Positions 40,957-64,000 of a stretch of 64,000 nucleotides of DNA are shown here, in pieces. The first letter of the stretch is position 1. The number at the start of each line of letters is the position of its first letter. This stretch comes from an uncultured Chloroflexia bacterium. Its GTDB lineage: Bacteria > Chloroflexota > Limnocylindria > Limnocylindrales > CSP1-4. The position numbers and the translations under genes were made by a program. Under the pieces are notes generated by a model. The model worked only from the letters and a program-made list of their open reading frames with translations. It made no database searches and was not told where the DNA came from. The DNA lies in contig CAVVJT010000010.1 in assembly GCA_963748625.1 (NCBI GenBank), positions 800,001 through 864,000 on the forward strand. Reading direction: 5' to 3'.

Positions 40957-41054
40957 TGGCTCCCTCTGGGCCGCGCCTGACGGCGAGGTGTTGCGCGGAG
41001 TCTAGCAACCGGGCCGGTGGGCCACCAGCCGGGGTGGGTCGCACGCGGGAAGGC

Positions 41055-41136
41055 CACGCTGCCGGGAGCGGCGGTCACTCGGCCAGGACGGCGGTCACGC
41101 TGCCGGGAGCGGTGGTCACTCGGCCAGGACGGCGGT
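41055..41136. repeat. 41-bp tandem duplication spanning the stop codon of the ABC permease
   Basis: cacgctgccgggagcgg(c/t)ggtcactcggccaggacggcggt twice. Confidence 0.85.
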
Positions 41137-43677: not shown

Positions 43678-43686
43678 CCCGGACGC

Positions 43687-44481: not shown

Positions 44482-44516
44482 GCGGTCTCCCGTCGAGTGC
44501 GGATCACGGCGGCTCC

Positions 44517-45503: not shown

Positions 45504-45590
45504 CGCCGTCCAGTGTCGCGCATGGCAGGCCCGGTGCGCACTCCACCGTTGAGGTCGCGGGAGGATGGGCGTCCGGACTACGCTGGGCCG

Positions 45591-47306: not shown

Positions 47307-47978
47307 TTACGGAAGCTTGGTGGTGCCGAAGGTCTCGTACCAGTCGGCGGCGAAGGCGTTCACCGCCTGGGTGACATCAGGTGCCCCGAGAGCGGCGCGG
47401 AGCAGCGCCGGGGGCAGCGTGACGGCCGTGGCGCCCGCCTCGAAGGCCGCGCTCACCTGGGCCACGTTCTTGAAGCTGGCGGCCATGATCTTGCACGCCG
47501 CGCCGTGCCGGTCGATGAACTTGGCAAGGGACTTGATGGTGGCGCTGGTGTCGATGTCCAGGCTCTCCATCCGGTTGAAATAGGGCGCGATGTAGTCGGC
47601 GCCGGCCGCGATCGCGAGCATGCCCTGGGTCTTGGAGTAGATGGCGGTGGCGGTCACCCCGATGCCCTCGTCCTTGAGCAGCCGCATCGCGTGGATGCCC
47701 TGCTCCGTGGTCGGGATCTTCGCGTACACCTTGCCGTCGACCTGGTCGAGCAGGCGGTGGGCGTCGGCGACGATGCCGGCGGCGTCCTGCGCCAGCACCT
47801 GGATGTGCAGCGTCCGATCCGGGCCGATGATCTCGCGGATGCGGCGGAAGTGGTTGTAGAAGTCGATCCGGCCCTCGGCCTTGATGATCGTGGGGTTCGT
47901 CGTCACGCCTGCGACCGGGTAGAGCGGCGTCATCTCCTCGATGTCGCGCAGGTTGGCAGTATCGAACAGGATCTCCAC
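47307..47978 (-). CDS. fsa: Fructose-6-phosphate aldolase (transaldolase family)
   Basis: FDTAN, GVTTNPT, KIP Schiff-base Lys, HIQV (Gln) and IAPYFNR (Tyr), AASFKN. Confidence 0.85.
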   Translation of the reverse strand: MEILFDTANLRDIEEMTPLYPVAGVTTNPTIIKAEGRIDFYNHFRRIREIIGPDRTLHIQVLAQDAAGIVADAHRLLDQVDGKVYAKIPTTEQGIHAMRLLKDEGIGVTATAIYSKTQGMLAIAAGADYIAPYFNRMESLDIDTSATIKSLAKFIDRHGAACKIMAASFKNVAQVSAAFEAGATAVTLPPALLRAALGAPDVTQAVNAFAADWYETFGTTKLP

Positions 47979-48006
47979 TCGGTTCCTCGCTTCAGCAGCC
48001 CGGCCG

Positions 48007-48052
48007 AGCCGGGATGGACCAATCAACGCAGCCGGGATGGACCAATCAACGC
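48007..48052. repeat. 23-bp perfect tandem duplication spanning the stop codon of the HAD phosphatase
   Basis: agccgggatggaccaatcaacgc twice. Confidence 0.9.
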
Positions 48053-48720
48053 AGCAGGCGAAGCCGGCCTTCCCACACCACCTGCCGGAGGTCGGGAACC
48101 ACTGCCGCCTCATGAGCGACCGGCGCACCCGACCCGACGCGGACGATGCAGGCCACGCCGGCAGCGTGCGCCGCGGCGATCCCCGGCGTGGTGTCCTCGA
48201 AGACCGCGGCTCGCCCTCCACCGACCCCAAGCTGTCGGAGCGCGGACGCGTAGCCCTCCGGGTGCGGCTTGCCGCGAACGACATCGTCGGCGGTGATCAC
48301 GACCCGGGGCCTCGGAAGGCCGGCAGCGCGGATACGGGCATCGAAGAGCGCCGGGCTGGCCGACGTCACGACGGCCCAGCGGTCCGCAGGGAGGCGCGTG
48401 AGGAGCTCCAGGGCTCCTGGGATCATCCGGACGGTGTCGGCGTCCGCTATCTCGATCTCCTCGATGAGGTCGCAGCCCTCAGCCACGAGGTCACCGGGCA
48501 GCCAGGTCGCCACGGTGTCGGGCGATGTCCGTCCATTTGAAGCGGCGAGCACGGTGGCGCCGTCCAGGCCGAAGCGTTCTGCCCAGCGCCCCCACGACCG
48601 GTCCACGCTGGCAGCCGAGTCGACCAGGACGCCATCGCAGTCGAAGATGATCGCCTCGACGCCGGCGAGCAGGGCCTCGCCGGGAGAGGCAGGATCCGCG
48701 CCTGCCACCGACTCAGCCAC
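48046..48720 (-). CDS. HAD-IA sugar phosphatase (YfbT-like)
   Basis: IFDCDGVLVDS, WAVVTSA, GKPHPEGY, FED. Confidence 0.88.
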   Translation of the reverse strand: MAESVAGADPASPGEALLAGVEAIIFDCDGVLVDSAASVDRSWGRWAERFGLDGATVLAASNGRTSPDTVATWLPGDLVAEGCDLIEEIEIADADTVRMIPGALELLTRLPADRWAVVTSASPALFDARIRAAGLPRPRVVITADDVVRGKPHPEGYASALRQLGVGGGRAAVFEDTTPGIAAAHAAGVACIVRVGSGAPVAHEAAVVPDLRQVVWEGRLRLLR

Positions 48721-48782
48721 GGGGCGTGAGGAGCGGCTCGAGGCGGACGACCGGGTGTGCGCCCGCAAGCCCCGGAGCGGGC

Positions 48783-49922
48783 CTAGAACGTCGAGGCCAC
48801 ATCGATGACCCTGCCCTCGCGAGCGGACTGCTGTGCGGCAAGCATCACCTCGAGCACGTGCCGCGCGTGACGCCCACTCGCGATCGGCTGCACGCCATCG
48901 CGGACGCAGTCCGCAAGGTGCTCAATCAGGGACCCGCGCTGCAGCTCGGCGAACCGGTCGGATCCCACCGGGAAGATGTCGTAGCTCTGCGGCGTGATCC
49001 AGCCGCCAAGGCCGGGCGCTGCGTCAAGCCGGTACACCTCGACGGGCGGCGCTGCGACATCACCGCGGTTGACGAGGAGCGTGCCCTCAAGGCCGAACAC
49101 CTCCATGCGCGGGCTCCGCGAGGCGACCACGTTGTAGGTCCCGTCGATGACGGCGAATGTCGCCTCGCCGAAATCCAGGAGGAGCAGGTTGTTGTCGGGC
49201 GCCGTCACGGGAATGGTCACACCGTCGTACGGGCCGCCACGTGCAATCCGCGTCGGGACCGTGATCCCGGACATGGCCGACACCCGCTTGGCCGCACCAA
49301 GGACGCCTGTGGCCTGGGTGATGCCGTACACCGCCATGTCCAGGAGCGCACCGACGCCGTCCTTGTAGAACTGCGACGGATCGACCGGCCAGGAGAGTCC
49401 GGCGGCCCCGGCGTGCGAGGACTGCACCCGCGCGAAGGCGACCTTGCCGATCGCCCCCCGGGCGACAAGATCCCGTGCGCGCGCCCACTCGGACGCGAGC
49501 ATGTCGGCGGGCGCTGCCACGACGTAGAGGTTCCGGCGATCCGCCAGGTCGAGGAGCTCGTCGGCCTCGGCAAGCGTGGTCGTGATCGGCTTCTCCGTGA
49601 TGAGGTGGCGCCCGGCGTCGAGGATCTGCTTCGAGGCGGTGAAGTGCGCGGGGCCTGGCAGCAGGTTGACCACGGCGTCCAGGTCGAGCGCAAGCAGATC
49701 GTCCAGCGATTCGACCGCCCGGCCGATGTCGTGCGCCTCGGCGACGGCCCGCGCCTGGTCGATGCGCAGGTCGGCGATGGCGATCAGCTCTACCCGGTCC
49801 CGGATCTTGCCCAGGTGCGGCAGGTAGCCATAGCCGATGGTCGCGATCATGCCGGCGCCCAGGACGCCCACCCGCATGCGGGACCCGGCGGCAGGCTGGG
49901 CGGAAGGCATGTCTGCTGTCAT
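48783..49922 (-). CDS. Gfo/Idh/MocA oxidoreductase
   Basis: VGVLGAGMIA, TEKP, GALLDMAVY. Confidence 0.9.
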   Translation of the reverse strand: MTADMPSAQPAAGSRMRVGVLGAGMIATIGYGYLPHLGKIRDRVELIAIADLRIDQARAVAEAHDIGRAVESLDDLLALDLDAVVNLLPGPAHFTASKQILDAGRHLITEKPITTTLAEADELLDLADRRNLYVVAAPADMLASEWARARDLVARGAIGKVAFARVQSSHAGAAGLSWPVDPSQFYKDGVGALLDMAVYGITQATGVLGAAKRVSAMSGITVPTRIARGGPYDGVTIPVTAPDNNLLLLDFGEATFAVIDGTYNVVASRSPRMEVFGLEGTLLVNRGDVAAPPVEVYRLDAAPGLGGWITPQSYDIFPVGSDRFAELQRGSLIEHLADCVRDGVQPIASGRHARHVLEVMLAAQQSAREGRVIDVASTF

Positions 49923-51796
49923 GACCCGACTCCTTCGGCTGCGGGCGCCGCGTGCGCCATGCGTCCTCGCTCATCGGCGGCCCAGTTGCGCCGGTAGTTC
50001 GCGTAGTGGATGGCGCCGATCGCCTGGGCGAACTGGGCGACCGTGTAGGTCTCGCTGTCGCGCAGCTGGCGCATGAGGTCCGTGTTGGCCATCTCATCGT
50101 CGGCTACGGCAAGCCAGAGGGTGGGCGCGATGAACCGAGCCCCGCCGACCATCAGGTCGAAGCACGCCCGACGCTTCACGAGCCGGCCGAACAGGATCCG
50201 CTTCTGGACGGCCGGGTCCAGGAGCCACGCGGATTCGTGCCAGGCGACGGCCATGAATTCCCCGATCTCCCAGAAGATCCGGTCAACCGCCGGGTGACCC
50301 CCCTCCTCTGCCGCGGCCATCAGGAACTCGAGCAGCGGCTTGCGCATGTCCTTGGGCTCGGTCGGGACGAACACGCCGTCCTCGGAGACCGTGAGCAGGC
50401 CCCGCTCCAGGAGCTCGGCGAAGAGCGCCGGGTCCTCCTCGGGCAGGTACTTGGCCGCCAGCCGGAAGACGCCGCTCTGGCTCGTGTACTTCTGGAGCGT
50501 GCCGGCGAGCCGCGTGTTGAAGTTGTTGACGCTCCGGACGTCATCGGGGGCGTACTGGCGCTCGGGGTAGCTGCCGAGGTCGATGATGCAGTTGTAGATC
50601 TCGAGGGGGATGTCAGGAATGGTGCCGGCCTCCGTCACCCACCCGGTCCCGAGCTCCGTTCCGAGGGTGTGCGCGAAGACGCCATCGGCGATCGCCGCGG
50701 GGTCAACCACCCCGAGCTCCACAGCGGCGGTGAAGGCCGCCATCGGGCCGTCGTTGACCATGCCGACCACGCCGCCGGGCTTCACGAACGCCCGAAGCGC
50801 CTCGTCGAGGGTCGAGAGCCGCCGGAACTCGGCCTCGTAGGCGGGACCGAGGTGTTCCCGCATGCCGCGGGTCTTGTAGACCTCGCCACCCACGATCTTG
50901 TCGCGTACGACGACGTCCGGGAAGCAGACACCGATGGCATCAAGCCCGAATGGGGCGGACTGCAGCGCCTCCCCAGCGAGCACCGAGGCCTCGATCGTCG
51001 GGAGCAGGGCACCGCGGGCGAACGCCGGGGCGAGCACCTCCGCCATCGCCTCTGGGTCACAGGCACCCCTGACCCTCGCCCCATCGAGTCGCATCAGGCG
51101 GACGAGCAGCAGGATCGGGTCGATGATCTGGTCGATCTCGGTGAAGGCGGCCGGGAACCAGTCGTACTCCAGGAAGCGGGCGACCTGGCCATCGACGGCC
51201 AGGCAGAGCTTGATGTCGGTGCCGCCGATGTCCATGCCGCAGATCGCGGTCCCGTCCATGCCGCTGGTCGCCAGTGTTCCCAGCTCGTGGATCCGGGAGG
51301 CGGGAGCTGTCGCCTGGGCCGCGTCGGCCGGCGCGGCGTCGAGCATCCGGAAGCGGCCGCGGGACGGGCTGCCCGGTTCCGAGATGGCCTCGTCCATGCG
51401 CTCGGAGACATTGACGGCACGGCCGTAGCCGGGGCGCTCGAGCCGCGTTGCCTCGAGGCCGAAGGCCCGCTCGAATGCCGCAGCCAGCTCGGCCCCCTCG
51501 CCATCGTCGCCCTCCGCCTGGAGCGCGATGCCGCGGCCGCCGAGCGTGGAGATGATGTTGTAGCAACCTGCCAGGACGTACTCCGTGACCATCGCCCGCT
51601 CGTCATCTGCCAGCGCCGCGAACCTCGGCAGGCGGAAGAAGAAGGCCTTGCCAGCCTCGTCGAAGCCGTCGAGCGAGGCCGTCAGGACGAACGAGTCCGA
51701 GGGCGGCAGCGCATCGAACCGCTCACGCACGGAGCTGATGTACACGGGTCGGCCCGCTGCGGCGGTGTCGACCAGATCCCGGATGACCTGGCTCAT
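49919..51796 (-). CDS. Long ROK/ASKHA-like putative sugar kinase
   Basis: GMDIGGTDIK, GVCFP, VNDGPMAA, TLGTELGTG; about 625 aa with an N-terminal extension. Confidence 0.7.
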   Translation of the reverse strand: MSQVIRDLVDTAAAGRPVYISSVRERFDALPPSDSFVLTASLDGFDEAGKAFFFRLPRFAALADDERAMVTEYVLAGCYNIISTLGGRGIALQAEGDDGEGAELAAAFERAFGLEATRLERPGYGRAVNVSERMDEAISEPGSPSRGRFRMLDAAPADAAQATAPASRIHELGTLATSGMDGTAICGMDIGGTDIKLCLAVDGQVARFLEYDWFPAAFTEIDQIIDPILLLVRLMRLDGARVRGACDPEAMAEVLAPAFARGALLPTIEASVLAGEALQSAPFGLDAIGVCFPDVVVRDKIVGGEVYKTRGMREHLGPAYEAEFRRLSTLDEALRAFVKPGGVVGMVNDGPMAAFTAAVELGVVDPAAIADGVFAHTLGTELGTGWVTEAGTIPDIPLEIYNCIIDLGSYPERQYAPDDVRSVNNFNTRLAGTLQKYTSQSGVFRLAAKYLPEEDPALFAELLERGLLTVSEDGVFVPTEPKDMRKPLLEFLMAAAEEGGHPAVDRIFWEIGEFMAVAWHESAWLLDPAVQKRILFGRLVKRRACFDLMVGGARFIAPTLWLAVADDEMANTDLMRQLRDSETYTVAQFAQAIGAIHYANYRRNWAADERGRMAHAAPAAEGVGS

Positions 51797-51827
51797 CAAG
51801 AAGCTCCGAAGGGCCGCCGGGGCGACC

Positions 51828-52736
51828 TCACCGTACGGCGAGACCCCGTTCGGCAAACAGGGAACGAAATGCGTTCATCTCGGCCGGCGAGTACGAGGTC
51901 GTGACATCGGCGAACTCGTGGGGCATCCCCATGCGCCGGTACTTCGCGCTCGCGAGCGGGTTGAAGTTGATGAGCTCGACCGGCAGGGCAGGGTCGATCT
52001 CCGCCACGAGGTCGGCGATCGCGCCGAGGTTCTCCGGCGTGGCCGTGTAGCCGGGGACGAGCGGCACCCGCACGAGGATCCGTCCCGTGTCCTGGAGCGC
52101 CGCGGCGAGGCGGCGCAGATTGCCGAGGATGAGCTCGTTCGAGACACCCGTCGCGACCCTGTGCGCTTCGGGATCCGCGACCTTCACATCCACGATGAAC
52201 AGGTCGATCACGGGCAGGAGCGGCTCGATCGAGGACCACGGTGCGTGGAACGATGATTCGAGCGTCGTGGGCAGACCCTGTTCCTTGAGGGCGGCCGCCG
52301 TCTCGAGCACGAACGCGGCCTGGGCAAGCGGCTCGCCGCCCGAGAACGTCACGCCGCCCCCGGAGACCTCGTGGAAGATCGCGTCGCGCCCGACCTCGGC
52401 CACCACCTCGTCCGTCGTGATGTCGCGGCCGTCCAGCGCGAGCGCGTTGCGGGGGCACGCCTCCACGCAGTCGCCGCACTGGGTGCAGGCGGCATGGTTG
52501 ATGTCGACGCCGGTCGGCGTCAGCGTGATCGCCTTGGTGGGGCAGACCTCGGCGCAGCGGCCGGAGTGGCCGCACAGGTTCTCGAAGTGCCACAGCGAGA
52601 TGCTGCGATCGAGCCCTTCGGGGTTCTGGCACCACCGGCACCGGAGGGGACAGCCCTTCAGGAAGACGGTGGTGCGGATCCCGGGCCCGTCATGGACGGA
52701 GAACCGCTGGAGGTCGAAGATCCGGGCCGAGCTCAC
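51828..52736 (-). CDS. Glycyl-radical enzyme activating enzyme (radical SAM, ferredoxin-like insert)
   Basis: HDGPGIRTTVFLKGCPLRCRWCQNPE, CTQCGDCVEACP, GGVTFSGGEP. Confidence 0.95.
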   Translation of the reverse strand: MSSARIFDLQRFSVHDGPGIRTTVFLKGCPLRCRWCQNPEGLDRSISLWHFENLCGHSGRCAEVCPTKAITLTPTGVDINHAACTQCGDCVEACPRNALALDGRDITTDEVVAEVGRDAIFHEVSGGGVTFSGGEPLAQAAFVLETAAALKEQGLPTTLESSFHAPWSSIEPLLPVIDLFIVDVKVADPEAHRVATGVSNELILGNLRRLAAALQDTGRILVRVPLVPGYTATPENLGAIADLVAEIDPALPVELINFNPLASAKYRRMGMPHEFADVTTSYSPAEMNAFRSLFAERGLAVR

Positions 52737-55106
52737 GAGTCTTCGTAGCTGGTCCGCGCGATGATCTCGTTCTGGAGATCCTCGGCAAGCTCGGTGAAGT
52801 AGGCCGTGTAGCCGGCGACGCGGATCGTCAGGTTCCGGTACTTGTCCGGATCCTTCTGGGCGGCGATCAGGTCATCGCGGGTGACCACGTTGAACTGGAC
52901 ATGGTTGATGCGAAGCCGGACGAACCCGCGCAGCATCGAGGAGAAGGCGGCGGCCCCCTCCTCGGACTTGAAGAGGCGCGGCAGGAACTTCATGTTGAGC
53001 AGCGTGCCGTTGCTGCCCAGGTAGGAGTCCACGCGCGCCACGGACGAGAGCAGCGCGGTCGGGCCGCGGTGATCGCGTCCGTAGACGGCGGACATGCCGC
53101 CATCGGCAAGCGGGCGCCTTGGCGGGGCGGCCGTCAGGCGTCGCGCCGACGTTTGCGCCCATCGGGACGTGGGCGCTCACGGTGTAGAGGCCCGTGTGGT
53201 ACCGGCCACCGCGATAGTTCGTGCGGCCCTCGAACTTGGCAGCGAAGTAGTGGACCCACGTGTTGCCGATCTCGTCCACCCACTCGACGTCGTTGCCGTA
53301 CTTGGGCGCCTTGTTGATGAGGATGTGCTGGAGCTCCTCGTCCTGCGCGTAGTTGGTCTGCAGCGCCGCGACCAGGCGGGCCTTGTCGACGGTGCCCTCG
53401 TCGAAGACGAGCTTCTTGACCGCCGCGAGGCTGTCCGCGACGTTGGCCACCTGGATGACCTGGATGCCGGACAGGTTGTAGTGCGCGCCGCCGCGCGTGA
53501 CGTCGAGGCCGCGGTCGAGGCAGTCGTCGATGACCGAGGACAGGAGGGCAGACGGGAGGAGGCGCTGGTGCATCTCCTCGACCTTCTCGCACGCCTCGAT
53601 CATCTTCTCGAAGAAGTAGTCGATCTGGACGGCAAAGGCCTGCTCGAGGTCCTCGTAGGTCGCGAAGTCGGTGAGATAGCCGGTCTGCGGGCCGAGCTGC
53701 GCACCCGTGAGGAGGCACTTGCCATCGTTCATGGCGAGCTCGAGCGCCTTGACGAGGTTGAACATCGCCGCGTCCGACCACCCGAGGGTGTTGCCGTGGG
53801 TGGTGAGCTCGACGCAGCCGACGATCGCGTAGTTCACGGCGTCGGCCGGCGCGATGCCCTGGGCCTCGAGGGCCGGGATGATGGACTCGTCGTTGAAGAC
53901 CTGCGGCATGCCGGAACCCAGGCCGATCACGCGCGTGCACTCGTCGAGGAGCGCGTCAGGCGTGTGCTCGTGGAGCCGGGCGGAGAGGTTGGGCTGCGGC
54001 AGGAGGATGTGGGCCTGCGCCTCGAGGAACAGGTACGAGAGGTCGTTCGACTCGTCCCGGCCCTGCTCGTCACGGCCGCCGAGGGCGACATTGAAGCCGA
54101 TCGGGAAGCCCGCGAAGAACGATGCGCTGTGCGAGTTGCGCAGGTACACGATCTGGTTGAACTTCAGCCAGAGCGCCTCGATCAGCTCGAGGGCGCCTGC
54201 CCGGTCCAGCCGGCCGGCGTCGACGTCCGAGCGGTAGTAGGGGTAGAGGTACTGGTCCGCGCGACCCGGCGAGAACGACGAGGCGTTGCTCTCCATGTGG
54301 AGCAGGGTGAACAGGAACCAGAGTGACTGGACCGCCTCGTGGAAGGTCTCGGCGCCGCCGACGGTGAGCTTGGTGCAGATCCGGGCAACCTCGCGCAGGT
54401 TGGCCGCTCGCTCGGGCGTCTCGGCCGTCGCCGCCATCGCGTTCGCGAGCTCGGCATACCGGCCCATGAAGTCGATCGATGCATCGAGGACGACCAGCAC
54501 GGAGTCGTAGAACTCACGCTGGTCGGGCGCGGCGCTCGCGGCCCGGGCCGCCGCCTCCGCGCGGAGGCCGGCCGGACCAAGGCGGATCCACTTGGCCGTG
54601 TCCGGGCAGATGTGGCCCTGGGCGTGGTCCTTCTGGTTGATCTTGACGACTTTGGCGATCGCGTCGAGAAGCGGGCCATCCTCGGCCCGAAGGGTGTCCT
54701 CGAGCGTCTTGCCCTGCCAGTACGGGAGGATCCGCTCACGGAAGGTGGCGGCATCCTCGGGGTGGACGTTGAACTTGTCCTGGGGCCGCGTCGCCATCGT
54801 GTCGAGCTCGCGGTCGATCCAGCTGATCCCGGCCTCCGGGAAGACAACCCCACCGCGGACACCGGTCGTGCGGTTGCCGACGATGAGCTCGTCCGGGTCG
54901 ATGTGGATCTCGAGCCTGCGCATCGATTCGGCGAGCGACAGGGCGCGCTTGAGGGCTGCGCTGGCGCCCTCATGCGACTGGTAGACGTCCGTGATGATGA
55001 GCGCCTGCTCAATCGACAGGTAGCGCGGCTCGTCGAGCATGCGCTCCTTCAGATCGACGATGCGCTGTGTCAGTCCAGCCTGCGTGGGGTGCTCTGCCAG
55101 GGTCAT
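52733..55106 (-). CDS. pflD: Glycyl radical enzyme, PflD-like; one apparent frameshift ~53110
   Basis: ELIVGNRT, TRPQDKF, INQKDHAQGHI, ESNASSFSPGR, GCVEL Cys loop, YTVSAHVP, and RVAGY glycyl loop in the shifted frame. Confidence 0.85.
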
Positions 55107-55313
55107 CCGTACTCTCCTCGACTCAGGCGCAACCTTATCTGTCCCGTCTCCTCCCGTGAAGTCACATACCTTGCCGATTGGTGGAGGAAAGTGCCCTCCC
55201 TCCGGGCGGAACTCCGCGGCTGCCCCGGCGGGCGGGCCCGCGTCAACACGTGGATCGGGCGTGCGCCGGGGTGGAGATAACTGACGCGTTCCGCAGCGTT
55301 CCGGACTGGATGA

Positions 55314-56192
55314 TCAGTCAGCGAGACGGGCCCGACGGAAGGCGCTCGGCGTCGTCCCCGCGAGGTCCCGGAAGACGCGGGCGAAGTACTTCGGATCATC
55401 GAACCCGACCCGCTCGGCAACGTCGTCCACGGTCAGGCGCTGGTCCGCAAGGAGCAGCTTCGCCTTGTCGATGCGGACGATGTTGCGGTAGTGCATCGGC
55501 GTCACGTCCATCTTCTTCTTGAACAGCCGGAACAGGTAGCTCGGGCTCACCGCGACCTGGGAGGCGAGCTCGTCGATGTCGAAGTCGCCCGCGTAGTTCT
55601 CGTGGATGTAGCCGAGACACCGCTCCACCAGCATGTTCGACTCGCGCGCCGGCTCCGAGAAGTGCTGGCGCACCTGGAGGAAGATCGCCTTGAGGTAGGC
55701 GGAGATCAGGTCCTCGGAGCAGGGCCGGTTCGCCGTGAACTCCGCATACACCATCTCGAACAGCGACCGCAGGTTCCCGCGCTCGTCCATGAGCTTGATC
55801 GCGTGCCCGAACGTCTCCGTGGGCCCGGTGTCGGCCCACAGGCAGATGATCTCCTGGCGATGTCGCAGATCGAGGTGCTCCGCGTGCTCGAGCTCGGGCG
55901 GATAGATCACGACGTCAAATCCGAGGACGTCGACCGACTCGTCGCCGGCGTCGATGTTGGCCTTCCCCTCGAGGAAGAAGATCAGCTCGAAGAACCGGTG
56001 CGAGTGCTTGCTGAAGTTCCAGATGCGGCTCTGCTCGTCGAAGCGCTCGCAGAACTGCAGCGTCGCATGCTCGATGTTCGTGCCCGCCAGGTACTGGCAG
56101 ATCGACTCGCGCTCGACCGGCTCGGCCCTGGCATGCGTTGCGTCGGAACTGGAAGCCCCTGCTCGACCCCGCGTCCGGGCCTCCGCCGCCAT
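55314..56192 (-). CDS. AraC family transcriptional regulator
   Basis: Cupin HSH..E N-domain; SPSYLFRLFK, VAERVGFDDPKYFARVF..GTTPSAFR. Confidence 0.93.
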   Translation of the reverse strand: MAAEARTRGRAGASSSDATHARAEPVERESICQYLAGTNIEHATLQFCERFDEQSRIWNFSKHSHRFFELIFFLEGKANIDAGDESVDVLGFDVVIYPPELEHAEHLDLRHRQEIICLWADTGPTETFGHAIKLMDERGNLRSLFEMVYAEFTANRPCSEDLISAYLKAIFLQVRQHFSEPARESNMLVERCLGYIHENYAGDFDIDELASQVAVSPSYLFRLFKKKMDVTPMHYRNIVRIDKAKLLLADQRLTVDDVAERVGFDDPKYFARVFRDLAGTTPSAFRRARLAD

Positions 56193-56194
56193 CG

Positions 56195-57193
56195 TCAGAG
56201 CTCGACCCGGGTACCGGTCTCGGCCGCCTCGCGGACGGCGAGCGCGACCTGCGCGGCCTGCAGCCCCTCGAGGCCCGTGACGACCGGCCGCGCTGCCTCG
56301 CCGTGGACGGCGGCAGCGAACCCGCTCACGTTGATGTCGTAGAGGTCGCGGCGGTTGGGGATGTCGACCTCCCGCTCGCCGGATGCATCACGCACCACCA
56401 CGGTTCCGATCGGCTCCTGCGTCATGACGTTGGTCGCGAGGATCGCGCCGTCCTCGCCGATGACGTGGATCCCGGTCGGAGCATAGGCGACGGTGAAGGC
56501 ATCGTGCGTCTGCACGAGGACCCCGTTGGCGTAGCGCATCGTCGCCATGAGCGCGTCCTCGGCAGCCGACTCCCAGGAGCCCTGCTTGGTCGAGAGCGCG
56601 ACCACATCGACCGGCAGCTCGCCGACAAGTGGGTTGATGACCGCGGCATCGTGGCACGTCACGTCCAGGGCGACGCCGCCGCCGGCCTTGCTGGCAAGAC
56701 GCCAGCCCTGGAGCCGCGGCGGGAGCATGACCGCATGGAACACGCGGATCGCGAGCAGCCGGCCGATGGCCCCCGCCTGCACCAGCTCCCGGATCGTCCG
56801 GTGCGTGTCGCAGCCAGGGAGATGATGGTTCGTGCCCAGGATCACGCCTGCCGCCTCGGCCGCGGCCAGCATCGCCTGGCCGTCCTCGACGGACAGGGCG
56901 AGCGGCTTCTCGGCGAGGACGTGTTTGCCGGCCCGGGCCGCGAGGATGGCGTGGTCGCGGTGGAACTCGTTCTTGGTGCTGATGTAGACCGCATCCACGT
57001 CGTCGCGCGCAACGAGGTCCTCAACGGTGCAGCCCACGGGGATCCCGTTGCGGTCCGCGTAGGTGGCGGCCCAGTCCGCGGTGGGATCGCCGACGGCCGT
57101 CACCTCGTGGCCCATCCGGCGCATGGCCGGGATCATGCGGGTGGCGGCGACGTCGCTGGCGCCGATCAAGCCCCAGCGCAGTGTTGCAGGCAT
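56195..57193 (-). CDS. afr: 1,5-anhydro-D-fructose reductase-like Gfo/Idh/MocA enzyme
   Basis: RWGLIGAS, EKPLA, LGTNHHL, RVFHAVMLPPRLQGWRL, GGGVALDVTCHD, HDAFT, NVMTQEP; matches my recall of Ensifer/Sinorhizobium Afr motifs. Confidence 0.82.
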   Translation of the reverse strand: MPATLRWGLIGASDVAATRMIPAMRRMGHEVTAVGDPTADWAATYADRNGIPVGCTVEDLVARDDVDAVYISTKNEFHRDHAILAARAGKHVLAEKPLALSVEDGQAMLAAAEAAGVILGTNHHLPGCDTHRTIRELVQAGAIGRLLAIRVFHAVMLPPRLQGWRLASKAGGGVALDVTCHDAAVINPLVGELPVDVVALSTKQGSWESAAEDALMATMRYANGVLVQTHDAFTVAYAPTGIHVIGEDGAILATNVMTQEPIGTVVVRDASGEREVDIPNRRDLYDINVSGFAAAVHGEAARPVVTGLEGLQAAQVALAVREAAETGTRVEL

Positions 57194-57221
57194 GGCGTTC
57201 GCTCCTCGTGGCGTGGGCGGC

Positions 57222-58820
57222 TCAGACGACCTTGCCCGCACGCATGATGGCCGCACCCTTCTCGCCGACCATGATCGACGGGGCCTGGGTGTTGCCGCTG
57301 ATCAGGGTGGGCATGATCGAGGCGTCGATGACGCGCAGCCCGCCGAGTCCGTGGACCTTGAGCTGCGTGTCGACCACCGCCATCGGGTCAGAGCCCATCT
57401 TGCAGGACCCGACCGGGTGGTAGTCGGTCTTGGACCACTCCTTGATGTACTCGCGGACGGCCTTCTCCGACTTCACGTCCTTGCCGGGCAGGCGCTCCCT
57501 CCGGATCAGACCCTTGAACGCCGGGGCGTTGATGATCTCGCGCCCGCGCTCGAAACCCTCCATGGAGATCTTCCAGTCGTAGGGGTCCTGGAGGAAGGCG
57601 GGGTCGATCGCCGGCTCCACCGTGGGATCCGCCGACCGGAGCGTCACCGAGCCGATGCTCTTCGGGCGCAGGTTGCAGGTGTTGATGGTGACGCCGTGGC
57701 CCTTGATCCGCATGCGGCCGTGGTCCACGACGTACGCCGGCAGGCAGTGGATCTGGATGTCGGGCGAGCGGACGTCGCTGCTCGACCGCAGGAACGCGCC
57801 GGCCTCGGCGACGCAGGCGGTCACCGGCCCCGTCTTGTAGAGGAGGTACTGGATGCCATGGCGGGCGGCCTTGTCCCACCGGTCCTCGCCGTTGTAGCTC
57901 ACCGGCGCGGTCTCGGCCGTCAGGTACACGTCCATGTGGTCCTGGAAGTTCTTGCCGACGCCCGGCAGGTCGTGCACCACATCGACGCCGAGCGCGCGCA
58001 GCTCGTCCGCCGGGCCGATGCCCGACAGGAGCAGCAGGCGGGGCGAGTTGACAGCGCCTCCCGAGAGGACCACCTCGCCGCCTGCCTGGATCCTGGCCTC
58101 GGCGGGCTTGCCGCTGTGCAGGTACTGGACCCCGACGGCCCTGCCGCCCTCCGTGAGGACCTTGGTGGCCGTTGCGTGGGTCTCGATGACGAGGTTCTTG
58201 CGGCCCTTGGCCGGACGGAGGAACGCCGTCGCCGCGCTCTCGCGGCGGACGTTGCGCTGCGTGACGTCGTAGTAGCCCACGCCGTCCTGCTCGGCGCCAT
58301 TGAAGTCATGGCTGAACGGGATGCCGAGCGTCTGCACGGAGCGCACGAACCCCTTGGAGATGGGGTTGTGCGAGACCTGTTCGGTGACGTTGAGCGGGCC
58401 GCCGGTGCCGTGGAACTCGTTGGCGAGACGCTCGTTGTTCTCGGACTTCGTGAAGTACGGCAGGACGCCGTCGTAGCCCCACCCCTCGTTGCCGAGGTCG
58501 CGCCACTCGTCGTAGTCGAGCCGGTGGCCGCGGATGTAGATCATCGCGTTGATCGAGGTGCTGCCCCCCAGGGTCCGGCCCTGCGGGTAGTGCATCCGGC
58601 GATCGTTGAGCTGCGGCTGCGGCACCGTGCTGAAACCCCAGTTCACGTCCGGGCTCGTCAGCTTGGTGAAGCCGGCCGGCATGTGGATGAGCGGATTGTT
58701 GTCGGGTCCGCCGGCCTCGAGGAGCAGGACGCGATTGGCGGGCTCCTCGCTCAGGCGGGCGGCGACGACGCAACCCGCCGCACCGGCCCCGACAACGATG
58801 TGGGTGTAGCGCTGGCTCAT
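57222..58820 (-). CDS. GMC oxidoreductase (choline/alcohol dehydrogenase-like)
   Basis: VGAGAAG, GRTLGGSTSINAMIY, GKNFQDH, YHPVGSCKMG, GNTQAP. Confidence 0.93.
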   Translation of the reverse strand: MSQRYTHIVVGAGAAGCVVAARLSEEPANRVLLLEAGGPDNNPLIHMPAGFTKLTSPDVNWGFSTVPQPQLNDRRMHYPQGRTLGGSTSINAMIYIRGHRLDYDEWRDLGNEGWGYDGVLPYFTKSENNERLANEFHGTGGPLNVTEQVSHNPISKGFVRSVQTLGIPFSHDFNGAEQDGVGYYDVTQRNVRRESAATAFLRPAKGRKNLVIETHATATKVLTEGGRAVGVQYLHSGKPAEARIQAGGEVVLSGGAVNSPRLLLLSGIGPADELRALGVDVVHDLPGVGKNFQDHMDVYLTAETAPVSYNGEDRWDKAARHGIQYLLYKTGPVTACVAEAGAFLRSSSDVRSPDIQIHCLPAYVVDHGRMRIKGHGVTINTCNLRPKSIGSVTLRSADPTVEPAIDPAFLQDPYDWKISMEGFERGREIINAPAFKGLIRRERLPGKDVKSEKAVREYIKEWSKTDYHPVGSCKMGSDPMAVVDTQLKVHGLGGLRVIDASIMPTLISGNTQAPSIMVGEKGAAIMRAGKVV

Positions 58821-58845
58821 CTGGATCTCCGGAACGCAGGTGGGA

Positions 58846-60366
58846 TCAGGCGATGCCGGCCTTGTCCGCGACGCGCAGGGCCTGCGCGGCCACGGTCAGC
58901 GCCGGATTCTGGGCTGCCGACGACGGGAGGAACGAGGCGTCCATCACGTACAGGTTCGAGATGTCGTGCGAGCGGCAGAGCGGGTCGAGCACCGACGTGG
59001 CCGGGTCGTCACCGAACCGCAGGGTCCCGCACTGGTGCGCGATCGCATCGATGCCGAACCGCCGGGTCTGGATGACGGGATAGCCGGCGCGCTGCATCGC
59101 GCGCGACATCGCCTTGACGAGACGCTTGTGCGCTCCGACGTTGTTCGGCTTCCAGGCCATGATCGTGCGGCCCGAGGCGTCGAGGGCGATGCGGTTGTCC
59201 GGGTGCGGCAGGTCCTCGGTCATGAGGTACCAGTCCACGCTACGCCCGGAGATCTCCTTGAGCGCAGCCTTCGGCATCCAGGAGATGGACGCCGCGAGCA
59301 TGCCCGGCTGCAGCTTGCCCAGGAGCTGCGCATTGCCCATCGGCAGCCGCGACGAGTCGTCGCCGAAATACCAGTCGTTGACCGCGAGGGTCTTCTGGAA
59401 GACCGTCGTGTTCTGCTGGGGCCGCACGGCCAGCATGCCCGAGTTGACGTGCATCATGAACCCGCGCCCGACGAGGTCGGACGAGTTCGAGAGGCCGTTG
59501 GGGTGCGTGTCAGAGGCGGATCGCAGCAGCATCGCCGCCGAGTTGATCGCACTCATCGCGACCACGTAGGTCTTGGCGATCACCCGCTTGCGCTCACCGT
59601 TGTGGTCGATCTCCACGCTTGAGATCTGGCGGCCGGACGGATCCGTGCGCAGGACGACGGCGCGGGCGCCCGTCATCATGTCCACATCGGGCGACTCGAG
59701 GGCAGGCCGGACAACGCACGTCTCAGCGTCGCTCTTTGCGAGCACCTGGCATGGGAAACCGTCACAGGTCTTGCAGCGGATGCAGGTCCCGCCTTCCTGG
59801 ATGTCGATGCCCAGCTGCAGCGGGTACGGCCTCAGTCCCTGGTCGCGAAACTTCTCCGCAAGCTCGGCGATGACCGGCTCGTGCGCCACGGCGGGGAACG
59901 GATAGGGGCCGGAGCGCGGCGGCTCGATGGGGTCGGCGCCCATCTCCCCATGGACCTTGAAGATGCGCTCGGCCTCGGCGTAGTACGGCTCAAGCTCCTC
60001 GTATGTGATCGGCCACGCGGGCGAGACGCCGTCCTCGGTCTCAAGCACCCCGAAGTCCTCGCGGCGGAGGCGGGGCAGCGCGGCGCCGTACACCTTGGTG
60101 TTGCCACCGACGCCATACCAGAAGGCGGGCCGGAACAGCTTGCCGTCGCGGTCGAGAAACTGCTCGGTCGTGCGGTAGCGCTTGTTCTTGAAGACGGCCG
60201 TCGGGCTCCAGTTCTCGGGCTCGCGTGGAAGGATGCCGCCGCGCTCGAGGATGAGCACCTTGGCGCCCTTGTTGCGGAGCGCGTAGGCGAGGGTGCCACC
60301 ACCCATCCCACTGCCGATGATGACGATGTCGGCAGTGATGGTGGGTCCGTCCGTCTGCGAGGTCAT
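58846..60366 (-). CDS. GMC oxidoreductase with Cys cluster (sugar dehydrogenase flavoprotein-like)
   Basis: IGSGMGG, VGGNTKVYG, CIRCKTCDGFPC, AHQCGT, NPALT. Confidence 0.9.
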   Translation of the reverse strand: MTSQTDGPTITADIVIIGSGMGGGTLAYALRNKGAKVLILERGGILPREPENWSPTAVFKNKRYRTTEQFLDRDGKLFRPAFWYGVGGNTKVYGAALPRLRREDFGVLETEDGVSPAWPITYEELEPYYAEAERIFKVHGEMGADPIEPPRSGPYPFPAVAHEPVIAELAEKFRDQGLRPYPLQLGIDIQEGGTCIRCKTCDGFPCQVLAKSDAETCVVRPALESPDVDMMTGARAVVLRTDPSGRQISSVEIDHNGERKRVIAKTYVVAMSAINSAAMLLRSASDTHPNGLSNSSDLVGRGFMMHVNSGMLAVRPQQNTTVFQKTLAVNDWYFGDDSSRLPMGNAQLLGKLQPGMLAASISWMPKAALKEISGRSVDWYLMTEDLPHPDNRIALDASGRTIMAWKPNNVGAHKRLVKAMSRAMQRAGYPVIQTRRFGIDAIAHQCGTLRFGDDPATSVLDPLCRSHDISNLYVMDASFLPSSAAQNPALTVAAQALRVADKAGIA

Positions 60367-60783
60367 GTCGCGTCAGCCTTTCACCGAGCCCTGTCGGTCC
60401 GCGGATTGGCAGCGGCCGAGGTTCAGAGAGATGTGGTCACGGGCGACCCCGCGATCTGGTTGGCGGCCATCACGGCGACCTGCGGGCGCGGGGTGCGCGA
60501 GAGGGCGCCAGGGCGACGGTGACTGGCTGGTGCGTGCCGCGCGTGCGGCATCGGTCATGATCCAGCCGCTCTGTCGCGTTGTCTGGAGTCATGCGGCACT
60601 CATTGCGACATGGTGCTGACCGTAGTCGGCGCGGTCGCTTGTGCCTACCCTCGCTTGTCGCAGATAGGTGGACAGGAATGACCTAACCGAGACCAGATCG
60701 CAACAATCGCGGATCAGCCCGGCGCAGCCTGCCGAGGCTGGCACCGAATGGCGCCAGCCTCGCCGCGCGGGACGACGCGCGGG

Positions 60784-61782
60784 TCAGACGGTTTCCCGGC
60801 GCCGCTTCCGGCTGAAGCTGTCGAGCCACAGGATCGCCACGATGATGAAGCCGAGGAAGAGGGTCGAGAGGTAGGACACCATCGAGTCGATGCGCAGCAT
60901 GTTGAACGAGTTCGTCAGCAGGCCGAGCAGGAGCAGCCCGATGGTGGACTTGATGGCCCCGCCGATGCCGCCCGCAACCGATGTGCCGCCGACGACGACG
61001 GCGCAGACGACGTACAGCGCCGTGCTGTCGCCCGCGATCGAGGACGCCGAGTTGAGCTGTGAGGCCAGCATGACGCCGCCGAGGGCCGCGGTCAGCCCGC
61101 AGATCAAGAAGGTCGCCGCCTTGGTCCGGCGGACGTTGATGCCCGAGTACTTCGCGACCTCGGGGTCGCCGCCGACCGCGTACACGTTGCGGCCGAAGGA
61201 GGTGCTCCGCAGCATCAGGTAGATGACGGCCAGCACGGCCAGCATCACGATGACCAGGAGCGGCACGGGTCCGAGGACCTTGAGGTTGGCGATGTCCGCG
61301 AACGCCGGGATCTGGCTCGCCACGGGCCGCGCGTTGGTCAGCTGCTGCCCGGCGCCGGTCAGGACGATGCCCATCCCCAGGGTGATGATGAAGGGCTCCG
61401 CCCGCTGGTAGACCGAGATGAGCGCGTTGACCGCCCCCACGGCGACGCCGATGAGGAGGGCGATCACGATGGCCACCGGGATCGGCACGCCCGCATTGAG
61501 CATCAGGACCACCGTCACGCCCGAGAACGCCATCATGGCGCCGATCGAGAGGTCGACGCCGCCGGCGATCAGCACGACCGTCTCGCCCATCGCGAGGATC
61601 AGGAAGATCGACGCGGACTTGAGGACATTGATGAAGTTGGCCTCGGAGAAGAAGTTGGTCTTCGTCTCCGGGTTCAGGTTGGCCAGGGCCATCACGAGGA
61701 TGACGAGCAGGATCGCCAGGAACGCCTTCTGGACGCCCAGGCCCTTCCTCGCGGCTCCGTAGATCCGTGTGTTCGCGCTCAT
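60784..61782 (-). CDS. Sugar ABC permease (RbsC-like)
   Basis: GGVDLSIG, FIITLG, FGRNVYAVGGDPEVAKYSGI, VVVGGTSVAGGIG. Confidence 0.93.
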   Translation of the reverse strand: MSANTRIYGAARKGLGVQKAFLAILLVILVMALANLNPETKTNFFSEANFINVLKSASIFLILAMGETVVLIAGGVDLSIGAMMAFSGVTVVLMLNAGVPIPVAIVIALLIGVAVGAVNALISVYQRAEPFIITLGMGIVLTGAGQQLTNARPVASQIPAFADIANLKVLGPVPLLVIVMLAVLAVIYLMLRSTSFGRNVYAVGGDPEVAKYSGINVRRTKAATFLICGLTAALGGVMLASQLNSASSIAGDSTALYVVCAVVVGGTSVAGGIGGAIKSTIGLLLLGLLTNSFNMLRIDSMVSYLSTLFLGFIIVAILWLDSFSRKRRRETV

Positions 61783-61785
61783 CGG

Positions 61786-62790
61786 CTAGCCCCTCACTCG
61801 CGCTTGCTTCACGGTGTCGAGCCAGATCACGACGATCAGGATGATCCCCCAGATCATGAACTGGATGTAGGACGAGACGCCAAGCAGGTTGAGACAGTTG
61901 TTCAGGAGCACCAGCAGGAAGACCCCGACGACCGTCCACAGGACGCTGCCGCGGCCCCCGGCCAGCGCCGTGCCGCCCACGACGACCGCGAGGATCGCCT
62001 GTGTCATGTACGGCGTTCCCATCGTGGGATCGGCCAGCGTGACTCGCGAGACGAGGACCACGGCGCCGATCGCCGACAGGAGGCCCGAGATCGCGTAGAT
62101 CATCACGATCGTCTTGCTGATGGGAACGCCGGCCAGGCGGGCCGCCGTCTTGTTGCCGCCCGTGAGGACGACCGCGCGTCCCATGTACATCCGTCTCTCG
62201 ATGACCAGGAGGATCGCGCCGCAGACGATGGCGATGGCGGTGAAGACCGACACGGGCCCGATGGTGCCCGAGTTGATCGCGTTGAAGATCGAGATGTCGG
62301 TCTGGGAGTACGTCAGGAACTGCGTGACGCCCTGGACGTACATCAGCGCCACGGCGCCGTAGACCAGGCTCATGCCGTAGGTGATGAACAGCGCCTCCGC
62401 CTGGGTCAGCGCACCGCTCGAGAGGATCAGCCCGCTGTTGACGAGGCCGCACAGCAGGCCGACGCCCACGCCGATGAGGATGGCCGGGCCCTGGCCCACC
62501 TTGTCGATCATGGTGACCGTCACCACGGCCACGAGCGAGATGATCCCGCCGATCGAGAGGTCGATGAACCCGGCCATGATCACGAAGGTCATGCCGAGGG
62601 CGGCGAAGATGAGCGTCCCGGACGACAGGATGATGTTGTTGAAGTTCGACGCGGTCAGGAACTTGGGTTCGACGATCGAGGTGACCACCACGAGGCCCAC
62701 GATCGCCACGTAGATGGGGTTGTCCCGCAGGAAGTTGACGATCGTGTGGGGGATGGACCGGCGTGCGACGGGTTGTGTCGTTGCGCTCAT
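61786..62790 (-). CDS. Sugar ABC permease (RbsC-like)
   Basis: GFIDLSIG, GGNKTAARLAG, VVVGGTALAGGRG. Confidence 0.92.
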   Translation of the reverse strand: MSATTQPVARRSIPHTIVNFLRDNPIYVAIVGLVVVTSIVEPKFLTASNFNNIILSSGTLIFAALGMTFVIMAGFIDLSIGGIISLVAVVTVTMIDKVGQGPAILIGVGVGLLCGLVNSGLILSSGALTQAEALFITYGMSLVYGAVALMYVQGVTQFLTYSQTDISIFNAINSGTIGPVSVFTAIAIVCGAILLVIERRMYMGRAVVLTGGNKTAARLAGVPISKTIVMIYAISGLLSAIGAVVLVSRVTLADPTMGTPYMTQAILAVVVGGTALAGGRGSVLWTVVGVFLLVLLNNCLNLLGVSSYIQFMIWGIILIVVIWLDTVKQARVRG

Positions 62791-64000
62791 GCGAACTCGA
62801 AGGCCTTCGCCATGATCTCGTCGGCCGAGGCGACCGCGGGGTCGAACTCGCCGTTGACCCGGCCATCACAGATCGTGTTGACCCGGTTGCTCATGTGGAG
62901 CACCTCCGGCAGCTCCGAGGAGATCAGGATGATCGACCCTCCGTCCTCGACGATCTTCTTCATCAGCATGTAGATCTCGTACTTCGCCCCGACGTCGATA
63001 CCCCTGGTGGGCTCGTCGAGGATCAGGATGCGGGGCTTCATCTCGAGCCAGCGGCCAAGGATCGCCTTCTGCTGGTTGCCGCCCGAGAGCGTCCTGATCC
63101 TGGTCTTGCCCGACGGCGTCTTGACGTTGAGGGCCTTGATCTGGCGGTCGCTGACCTCGCCCTCCGCATTGGAATCGATGAAGCCGCCCCGCGTGAGATG
63201 GCGCAGGACTGCCAGCGAGATGTTCTGCTCCACGGAGAACCCGAGCAGCAGGCCCTGGAGCTTGCGGTCCTCCGGGACCATCGCGAGGCCCAGGTTGATG
63301 GCGTCGATGGGGTTGTGGATCTGGACCGGCTTGCCGTCGAGGTAGACGCTCTTCTTGCGGACCTTGTCAGCGCCGAACAGGGCCCGCACGAGCTCCGTCC
63401 GCCCGGAGCCCACGAGACCCACCAGACCCAGGATCTCGCCCTTCCGCAAGGTGAGCTGGACGTCCTTCAGCTTCCGGGTGCTGATGTTCTTGATCTCGAG
63501 GATCGGCTCGCCCGCGCTCTCCGGCCGCGGCGGGTACTCGTTCTCGATGGTCCGCCCGACCATCATCGCGATCATCTCGTTGCGGGTCAGCTCGCTCACG
63601 GGCTTGGTGTCGATGACGCGTCCGTCGCGCATGACGGTGACCTTGTCGCAGAAGCCGAAGATCTCGTCGAGCTTGTGGCTGATGTAGATGATCGCGATGC
63701 CCTTGGCCTTGAGGTCCGCGATGATCTTGACGAGCTTGTCCATCTCGTCCTGGGTGAGGCTGGAGCTGGGCTCGTCCATGATGATGAGCTTCGAGTCGAA
63801 CGAGAGCGCCTTCGCGATCTCGACCATCTGCTTGTCCGAGACGCTGAGCTCCGAGACCATCTTGTGGGTGCTGACCTTGCACCCGATGCTGTCCAGCAGG
63901 TTGCGTGCCTTGGCGTGCACGCCGCGCCGTCCGCCCGACTCGCTGAACCGGCCGAGGAAGACGTTCTCGCCGACCGTCATCGTGTTCACCAGGTTCAGCT
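62787..64000 (-). CDS. Sugar ABC ATP-binding protein (RbsA-like, two NBDs), 5'-partial
   Basis: IMDEPSS, YISHKL, GLVGSGRTE, VPEDRK, LSGGNQQK, DEPTRGIDVGAK; frame open to the window edge. Confidence 0.93.
   Translation of the reverse strand, partial: LNLVNTMTVGENVFLGRFSESGGRRGVHAKARNLLDSIGCKVSTHKMVSELSVSDKQMVEIAKALSFDSKLIIMDEPSSSLTQDEMDKLVKIIADLKAKGIAIIYISHKLDEIFGFCDKVTVMRDGRVIDTKPVSELTRNEMIAMMVGRTIENEYPPRPESAGEPILEIKNISTRKLKDVQLTLRKGEILGLVGLVGSGRTELVRALFGADKVRKKSVYLDGKPVQIHNPIDAINLGLAMVPEDRKLQGLLLGFSVEQNISLAVLRHLTRGGFIDSNAEGEVSDRQIKALNVKTPSGKTRIRTLSGGNQQKAILGRWLEMKPRILILDEPTRGIDVGAKYEIYMLMKKIVEDGGSIILISSELPEVLHMSNRVNTICDGRVNGEFDPAVASADEIMAKAFEFA

Follow-up and report, generated by a model that had tools for sequence, protein, structure and literature searches.

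A gene cluster on the minus strand of the window, that is, of the whole 64,000-nucleotide stretch G000:C10:800001-864000 of a Chloroflexota metagenome-assembled genome (MAG), is predicted to encode a variant of anhydroglycolysis that is independent of the phosphotransferase system (PTS). We assign this reading a probability of about 0.6. The cluster occupies positions 47307-64000 and includes genes for a sugar ATP-binding cassette (ABC) transporter, a homologue of 1,5-anhydro-D-fructose reductase (AFR), a glycyl radical enzyme (GRE) with its radical activase, a 625-aa protein that is the predicted anhydrohexitol kinase, and a fructose-6-phosphate aldolase (FSA). The MAG (4.6 Mb, 71% G+C, 98.3% complete, 7.74% contamination) represents a soil or freshwater bacterium.

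The GRE, its activase and the kinase form a fixed triad. A scan of one genome per species yielded 567 relatives of the GRE, and the best 80 of these 567 were taken as related loci; all open reading frames (ORFs) of these loci were clustered, the representatives were scanned, and gene presence was tabulated per locus. The kinase is present in 50 of the 80 loci. At least two ABC components are found in 33 of these 50, and neither PTS nor FSA genes occur in any of them (0/50 in both cases). The other 30 loci, many of which are short contigs, contain a GRE of the same clade; a Frw-like PTS (IIA, IIC, IIB and a PRD regulator) is seen in seven of them and ABC genes in two, and in 12 FSA directly follows the GRE and the activase. 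In the reciprocal test, 80 metagenome loci were retrieved with the kinase alignment, and 50 of them have at least 3.5 kb upstream. The GRE is present in 46 of these 50, usually about 3.3 kb upstream of the kinase, and the activase in 48, about 0.94 kb upstream; PTS genes were found in none of the 80 loci, and FSA was found downstream in three. The kinase and the PTS are mutually exclusive, as expected if the kinase performs the phosphorylation that elsewhere is done by the PTS.

The gene order GMC1-GMC2-AFR-AraC-GRE-activase-kinase-Gfo2, where GMC1 and GMC2 are GMC-family flavoenzymes and Gfo2 is the second of two Gfo/Idh/MocA oxidoreductases, is conserved in six MAG loci from Chloroflexota, and its core is found again in several phyla; hence the arrangement is more than chance. 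Other genes recurring in the 80 loci, with the window not counted, are AraC (31 loci), DeoR (31), a dehydrogenase resembling AroE (15), an ordinary ROK kinase (13) and GMC1 (11, in Chloroflexota, Anaeromyxobacter and spirochaetes).

The organism itself appears to lack a sugar PTS of the fructose/mannitol type. The initial annotation reported no PTS gene in the window and pointed out that a linked PTS just outside would speak against its proposal; the former observation holds, and no PTS gene was found in the 16-kb flank. A search of the whole genome yielded neither PTS_EIIC nor PTS_EIIA_2, and the genes of PTS type that were found genome-wide are one EI-like gene on another contig and one HPr gene 200 kb from the cluster.

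In the known route, as outlined in PMC13450708 and PMC12441222, anhydro-sugars are taken up by a PTS, YbiW and PflD open 1,5-anhydroglucitol-6-phosphate (AG6P) and 1,5-anhydromannitol-6-phosphate (AM6P) to 1-deoxyfructose-6-phosphate (DF6P), and FSA cleaves DF6P; the E. coli background given in the initial annotation agrees with this description. The E. coli loci show the known layout, with frwCB-pflDC-frwD/fsaB in one locus, ybiV beside ybiW, and yijO beside frwD; the kinase-less loci with FSA or Frw-type PTS genes resemble the first of these. As in E. coli, the window contains a PFL2-type GRE with a CxE Cys loop, a dedicated activase and an operonic FSA, and a HAD sugar phosphatase (ybiV in E. 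coli) and an AraC-type regulator (yijO in E. coli) are encoded nearby. Unlike E. coli, it has no PTS genes, and a CUT2 ABC transporter and a ROK-like ATPase without a Pfam family are found instead; further, the GRE belongs to a separate clade, and the genome is that of a Chloroflexota MAG rather than of a gut anaerobe. Ma et al. (JACS 2024, doi 10.1021/jacs.4c07718) have reportedly described radical anhydroglycolysis in gut bacteria, with uptake of anhydro-sugars by a PTS. No variant with an ABC transporter and a kinase is described in the literature that we searched; the article of Ma et al. 2024 and its supplements lay outside this search, so they may have priority.

In the proposed variant, the ribose-type (CUT2) ABC transporter would import a 1,5-anhydro-sugar. 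The AFR homologue would convert 1,5-anhydro-D-fructose to 1,5-anhydro-D-mannitol, and oxidation of 1,5-anhydroglucitol by GMC1 may feed the same pool. The 625-aa ROK-like ATPase would then phosphorylate the anhydrohexitol, which corresponds to the PTS step of E. coli and Firmicutes. The GRE, switched on by its activase, would abstract a hydrogen at C2 and cleave the C1-O5 bond, yielding DF6P, and FSA would split DF6P into hydroxyacetone and glyceraldehyde-3-phosphate (G3P). The HAD phosphatase may act as a safety valve that keeps phosphorylated anhydro-sugar from accumulating, and control of the operon would fall to AraC. We infer all substrates, the order of the kinase and GRE steps, and the roles of GMC1, GMC2, Gfo2 and the HAD protein.

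Coding frames were called from the G+C content of third codon positions (GC3), and families were assigned using Pfam and NCBIfam. Between 47307 and 64000, coding GC3 signals are confined to frames of the minus strand. Each gene of the single co-oriented cluster claimed earlier for this region was found there, and the binding protein, which had been placed upstream of the window, lies directly beyond it. The features, listed by descending coordinate, are the following.

Window-equivalent 64371-65459 (L001:2371-3459), outside the window: substrate-binding protein of CUT2 type, Peripla_BP_4
62787 to beyond the window (window-equivalent 64319), minus strand: ABC ATPase with two ABC_tran domains (Pfam)
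61786-62790, minus strand: ABC permease 1 (Pfam BPD_transp_2, 7.9e-29)
60784-61782, minus strand: ABC permease 2 (Pfam BPD_transp_2, 1e-40), followed by a 417-nt gap to GMC1
58846-60366, minus strand: GMC1, FAD-dependent dehydrogenase (Pfam GMC_oxred_N/C)
57222-58820, minus strand: GMC2, flavoenzyme resembling choline dehydrogenase (NCBIfam NF002550, 604.8, cut-off 605)
56195-57193, minus strand: Gfo/Idh/MocA oxidoreductase no. 1, the AFR homologue
55314-56192, minus strand: AraC-family regulator (Pfam HTH_18, HTH_AraC, AraC_binding), followed by a 207-nt gap to the GRE
53113-55106, minus strand: GRE, PFL-like part (Pfam PF02901, 1.7e-202), with the Cys loop VGCVE
53113-53115, minus strand: frameshift in the GRE gene, one extra C
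52733-53113, minus strand: GRE, Gly_radical part (PF01228, 2.5e-28), with RVAGYT, in the -1 frame relative to the first part
51828-52736, minus strand: GRE-activating radical SAM enzyme (NCBIfam TIGR02494, 302.8, cut-off 174), with CX3CX2C
49919-51796, minus strand: 625-aa ROK-like ASKHA protein with DxGGT and no Pfam family, the predicted anhydrohexitol kinase
48783-49922, minus strand: Gfo2, Gfo/Idh/MocA oxidoreductase no. 2 (Pfam)
48046-48768, minus strand: HAD-IA sugar phosphatase (Pfam HAD_2), the true start probably being downstream of 48768
47307-47978, minus strand: FSA (NCBIfam NF009299, 283.5, cut-off 214)

The GRE has the features of its class, namely the PFL-like and Gly_radical domains, VGCVE at residue 430 of the N-terminal part, and RVAGYT; the adjoining gene encodes the radical SAM activase with CX3CX2C. 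The GCxE Cys loop is a feature of GRE eliminases and isomerases. Its highest PDB scores are those with 8id0 (481 bits) and E. coli PflD, 8yjo (476 bits); PMC13450708 describes 8id0 as the complex of PflD with AM6P. The nearest relatives of the GRE are found in Chloroflexota MAGs (87-92% identity), and the others, with 58-79% identity, come from Myxococcota, Actinomycetota, Planctomycetota, Spirochaetota, Bacillota, Kiritimatiellota and Bacteroidota.

For the GRE trees, E. coli PflD and YbiW were included along with the second copies encoded in some of the loci and with paralogues of five genomes (two CutC and one HPAD as named by NCBIfam, the others unnamed). In the FastTree tree of 109 rows, the clade of the window GRE (83 rows, support 100) and the PflD clade are neighbours (support 89). 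The IQ-TREE analysis under a mixture model comprised 43 rows, after two long-branch unnamed GREs (L097 and L103) and 64 near-redundant rows had been left out. Here the window clade (25 rows, support 100) and the PflD clade (three rows, support 99) group together with SH-aLRT 98, apart from the YbiW-like GREs (eight rows), CutC, HPAD and four other GREs of PFL2 type. Judged by sequence, the window clade is a large, distinct sister of the PflD clade and does not lie inside it, and the window GRE is no PflD orthologue. The earlier designation "PflD-like" is therefore to be taken in a narrower sense: the enzyme does group with PflD and not with YbiW, whereas its identity to PflD, its score against the PflD equivalog family and its separate clade do not agree with orthology. 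Nine alignment columns are exclusive to the window and PflD clades, including two Arg residues and the NQxD motif. A signature common to all three isomerase clades was sought as well and could not be derived, as only one such column was absent from the seven outgroups.

The AFR homologue aligns end to end with the solved AFRs of Sinorhizobium morelense and S. meliloti (2glx and 4koa), scoring 304.7 bits (6.1e-90) with 4koa and 299.6 bits (2.1e-88) with 2glx, and the next PDB match has only 92.5 bits; this supports its earlier identification as an Afr homologue. The nucleotide-binding and catalytic stretches are kept: GLIGAS, EKP and LDxTxHD are conserved in all three proteins. We take the Lys of EKP and the Asp and His of LDxTxHD to be the catalytic residues. 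In the rhizobial pathway, 1,5-anhydrofructose is converted by AFR to 1,5-anhydromannitol, which is then hydroxylated to mannose (PMC12441222, as summarised in section 5.1). Unlike the rhizobial gene, the AFR gene of the window precedes those of the GRE, the kinase and the aldolase, and is not followed by an oxygen-dependent hydroxylation; hence anhydromannitol would here meet radical ring opening instead of conversion to mannose. To our knowledge, the oxygen-dependent hydroxylase of the aerobic AFR route has yet to be identified. A gene resembling shikimate dehydrogenase (AroE) lies beside the GRE in 15 of the 80 loci, of ABC type and without AFR, e.g. L031:8940-9818, and could encode an alternative anhydrofructose reductase. 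The 80 related loci yielded no GldA homologue; the window's genome was not searched for GldA.

The remaining genes of the cluster are less specific. The binding protein has ribose-binding proteins as its best PDB matches, at about 80 bits. The best PDB matches of GMC1 are the large (catalytic) subunits of FAD-dependent fructose and glucose dehydrogenases (126-142 bits), and its N-terminus, as seen by eye, leads straight into the FAD-binding motif. At a guess, GMC1 may oxidise 1,5-anhydroglucitol to 1,5-anhydrofructose. Its assignment as a pyranose 2-oxidase was considered and rejected, the matches being weak and C-terminal (TIGR02462, 45 bits; 9fl2, 36 bits). GMC2 matches 9lq0 (413 bits) and, among the relatives, is seen only in six Chloroflexota. 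The best PDB match of Gfo2, DgpA1 with 62 bits, is uninformative, and the protein is 78-86% identical in five Chloroflexota relatives. The HAD protein scores 122.9 against NCBIfam NF008610, "sugar phosphatase", under the cut-off of 282, and among the relatives occurs in L002 only. The AraC-family regulator was also compared with E. coli YijO; the likeness is confined to the HTH region, and orthology was rejected.

Along its whole length, FSA shares 35% identity with E. coli FsaA, and its KIP and APYFNR stretches align with KVP and APYVNR of FsaA; these stretches presumably contain the Schiff-base Lys and the active-site Tyr. It is the sole strong TIGR00875 match in the genome.

The 625-aa protein has no match in Pfam, even at E = 10, or in NCBIfam, and neither do two distant relatives. 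There are at least 1235 homologues, and the named ones among those listed are all "hypothetical protein". The DxGGT, NDG and GTxxGxG motifs, the phosphate motifs of ASKHA proteins, are invariant in an alignment of 44 sequences. The AF2 model is confident (pLDDT 93.4, pTM 0.93). Foldseek matches it to glucokinases (ROK), N-acetylmannosamine and N-acetylglucosamine kinases, and hexokinases, with TM about 0.7 to the target and E of 3e-10 to 1e-8; the top 30 are all ROK kinases, glucokinases or ROK repressors. The matches span the last 430-450 residues or so, leaving an extra N-terminal domain of about 170 residues. In the ESM Atlas, the nearest named cluster is ROK, with a score of 0.93. Thus, like the ROK sugar kinases (e.g. 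PDB 2qm1, 3vgk and 6jdb), the protein has the two-domain ASKHA fold and all three motifs. Unlike them, it has no match to Pfam ROK (PF00480), lacks the zinc motif, is approximately twice as long owing to the N-terminal domain and insertions, and is encoded after a GRE activase. The Cys-rich zinc motif is a feature of ROK kinases; here a single Cys (C545) is invariant in the 44 sequences. The initial annotation called the protein a "ROK-like kinase". The fold, the phosphate motifs and the mutual exclusion with the PTS agree with this name, whereas the protein falls outside the Pfam ROK family. In one Chloroflexota relative (L005:13224-15217) the orthologue is apparently split into frames of 523 and 130 aa.

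A number of observations weigh against the proposed pathway, and the alternatives that they suggest are considered here together with them. The first group concerns the specificity of the GRE. The enzyme shares 39% identity with E. coli PflD and 35% with YbiW, and its N and C parts score 575.5 and 142.3 bits, respectively, against the NCBIfam PflD equivalog NF007437, whose cut-off is 1109. The PDB runners-up, B12-independent glycerol dehydratase (1r8w, 459.5 bits) and an unnamed GRE (9rco, 457.7 bits), are close to PflD, with YbiW at 370 bits. The comparison with glycerol dehydratase, which shares the CxE Cys loop, is by score only; the context in the window, unlike that of glycerol dehydratase, is sugar transport, a kinase and an aldolase. 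The sister relation to PflD holds for the sampled rows, which include no named dehydratase for glycerol, propanediol or hydroxyproline. Moreover, a PflD-like GRE stands beside the GRE of the window clade in two loci, L033 and L047, which suggests that the two are non-redundant and maybe act on different substrates. In one of these loci, L033 from a Eubacteriales MAG, three GREs occur together, which suggests that each has a specificity of its own: the first resembles PflD (47% identity to the E. coli enzyme), the second YbiW (53%), and the third is a member of the window clade (62%). The 625-aa protein is encoded there too, as are a ROK kinase, an AroE-like dehydrogenase and an ABC transporter.

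The second group concerns the fate of the product. FSA adjoins a kinase-type locus only in the window and in three of the 80 metagenome loci, and a TIGR00875 search revealed no FSA-type gene in four of five genomes that carry one, among them a close Chloroflexota relative assembled to chromosome level. No other aldolase was found downstream in the close relatives, where the ORFs encode a HAD protein, a P-loop kinase-like protein, an aldo-keto reductase and unrelated proteins. The part given to FSA in the initial proposal is weaker than was stated: in the window the gene is linked to the GRE and scores above the equivalog cut-off, and all 50 kinase-type loci among the 80 lack it. How most kinase-type organisms would process the GRE product is not accounted for by the proposal. 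Further, a flavin dehydrogenase or oxidase next to an oxygen-sensitive GRE is awkward, and the co-occurrence counts, such as 50 of 80, stem from related genomes and are not independent events.

Taken with the fact that AFR orthologues adjoin the GRE in the Chloroflexota group only, the PDB scores, the low identity to PflD, the loci L033 and L047 and the genomes without FSA would suit a GRE clade with another substrate. This could be a third phosphate of an anhydro- or deoxy-sugar or, as in glycerol dehydratase, an unphosphorylated polyol that is dehydrated; the AFR and FSA genes would then simply mark a general sugar island. We consider this unlikely. The sister relation to PflD with support of 98 and the nine exclusive residues argue against it, and so does the position of FSA directly after the GRE and activase in the 12 PTS-type or kinase-less loci, as well as in the three metagenome loci of kinase type and in the window. 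A YbiW-like GRE, with 41-66% identity to E. coli YbiW, is found in the same locus in 15 of the 80 cases, and the accompanying sugar-kinase-like protein or PTS points to a phosphorylated sugar.

The role of the 625-aa protein may be questioned as well. Two of the at least 1235 homologues are fused to the activase, which is not explained by a plain metabolic kinase. In these fusions, P0118 (890 aa) and P0121 (854 aa), the activase forms the N-terminal 240 aa or so; they are either real or gene-calling artefacts. Together with the rigid order of GRE, activase and ASKHA genes at the distances given above, the N-terminal domain with no assigned role, the lack of a Pfam family for the protein, and the ordinary ROK kinase present in 13 of the 80 loci, they could mean that the protein does not phosphorylate the substrate at all, and instead either phosphorylates the ring-opened product after the GRE or is an ATP-dependent helper of the GRE or activase. 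A helper of the GRE, however, would be expected in the PTS loci of the same GRE clade too, and the 625-aa protein is missing from all of them (overlap 0/50). Its top fold matches are all sugar kinases, and a single invariant Cys makes an Fe-S activator of the "archerase" type unlikely. Thus we regard a role other than that of the substrate kinase as quite improbable.

An objection to the pathway in this particular strain is the frameshift. One extra C in the sequence GCGCCCG of the coding strand, at about 53113-53115 of the window, splits the GRE into two frames. All 46 aligned relatives have one base fewer at this site, and all listed environmental contigs spanning it lack the extra base; these contigs, from four runs, represent relatives (88-99% alike) and not the same strain. 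The best indexed sequencing run contained 0.26 of the sampled words, and the source reads were not among the indexed runs. The initial annotation had noted that a real frameshift in the GRE would speak against its proposal. The shift is real in the assembly, and the contigs of relatives are compatible with an assembly indel and with a recent mutation alike. That the base is a true recent mutation seems to us possible but doubtful; if it is, the pathway may be inactive in this strain.

The frameshift also bears on the history of the locus. No orthologue of the GRE was found in 24 genomes of the same genus, and the G+C content over positions 50000-64000 of the window is 0.64-0.70, compared to 0.70-0.76 elsewhere in the window. 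Because of these two observations, the cluster is an accessory island, probably an acquired one. Along with the absence of the extra base from the relatives and environmental contigs, they might indicate a decaying island of horizontal origin, in which the GRE is a true pseudogene and the radical step does not operate. Several facts do not agree with decay: the two halves of the GRE are otherwise intact, being 92% (first part) and 98% (Gly_radical part) identical to those of L002 and retaining every motif; none of the 13 neighbouring genes is interrupted; the inserted base sits in a run of C; and a ptsI-like gene of the same MAG (G000:C7:474641-476246) is also split over two frames (model positions 2-207 and 216-539), as assembly indel errors would give. 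Decay in this strain is a real possibility, though less likely than not.

The 16 kb beyond the window contain genes for a CoA-transferase, an aldehyde dehydrogenase, an MFS transporter, a chromate transporter and an SDR protein. The aldehyde dehydrogenase and CoA-transferase genes are found upstream of the cluster both in L001:4474-7655 (window-equivalent 66474-69655) and in L002:2-4792, and in L002 a gene for an enoyl-CoA hydratase, with a weak GH88-like C-terminal match, is next to them. These enzymes may be candidates for processing the C3 product, hydroxyacetone or lactaldehyde. On the other side, downstream of the cluster, the region 40312-46694 of the window contains a 725-aa ORF with a match to the CAP (cysteine-rich secretory protein) domain, an ABC exporter pair of MacB/FtsX type and a BioY biotin transporter, which seem unrelated to the cluster.

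A more general reading goes beyond this genome and is offered tentatively, at somewhat less than even odds. The window clade would be a third widespread clade of ring-opening sugar-phosphate GREs which, with a dedicated ROK-like kinase family of about 620 aa and an ABC transporter, would make up an anhydro-sugar glycolysis without PTS that is spread over at least six phyla, mostly in environmental bacteria. In the Chloroflexota it would be joined to an AFR of rhizobial type, so that 1,5-anhydrofructose could be converted all the way to hydroxyacetone and G3P without oxygen, in place of the aerobic hydroxylase. Because the window clade sits beside YbiW-like and PflD-like GREs in single loci, its substrate may be one other than AG6P or AM6P.

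If the PTS-independent reading of the cluster is right, many environmental bacteria without a sugar PTS use the same radical chemistry, and at least 1235 "hypothetical proteins" gain a testable function as the kinase of the pathway. The uncharacterised sister clade of PflD would gain a candidate substrate, and 1,5-anhydromannitol made by AFR an anaerobic fate. The cluster might also provide enzymes for the conversion of starch-derived anhydrofructose to hydroxyacetone or 1,2-propanediol without PTS engineering.

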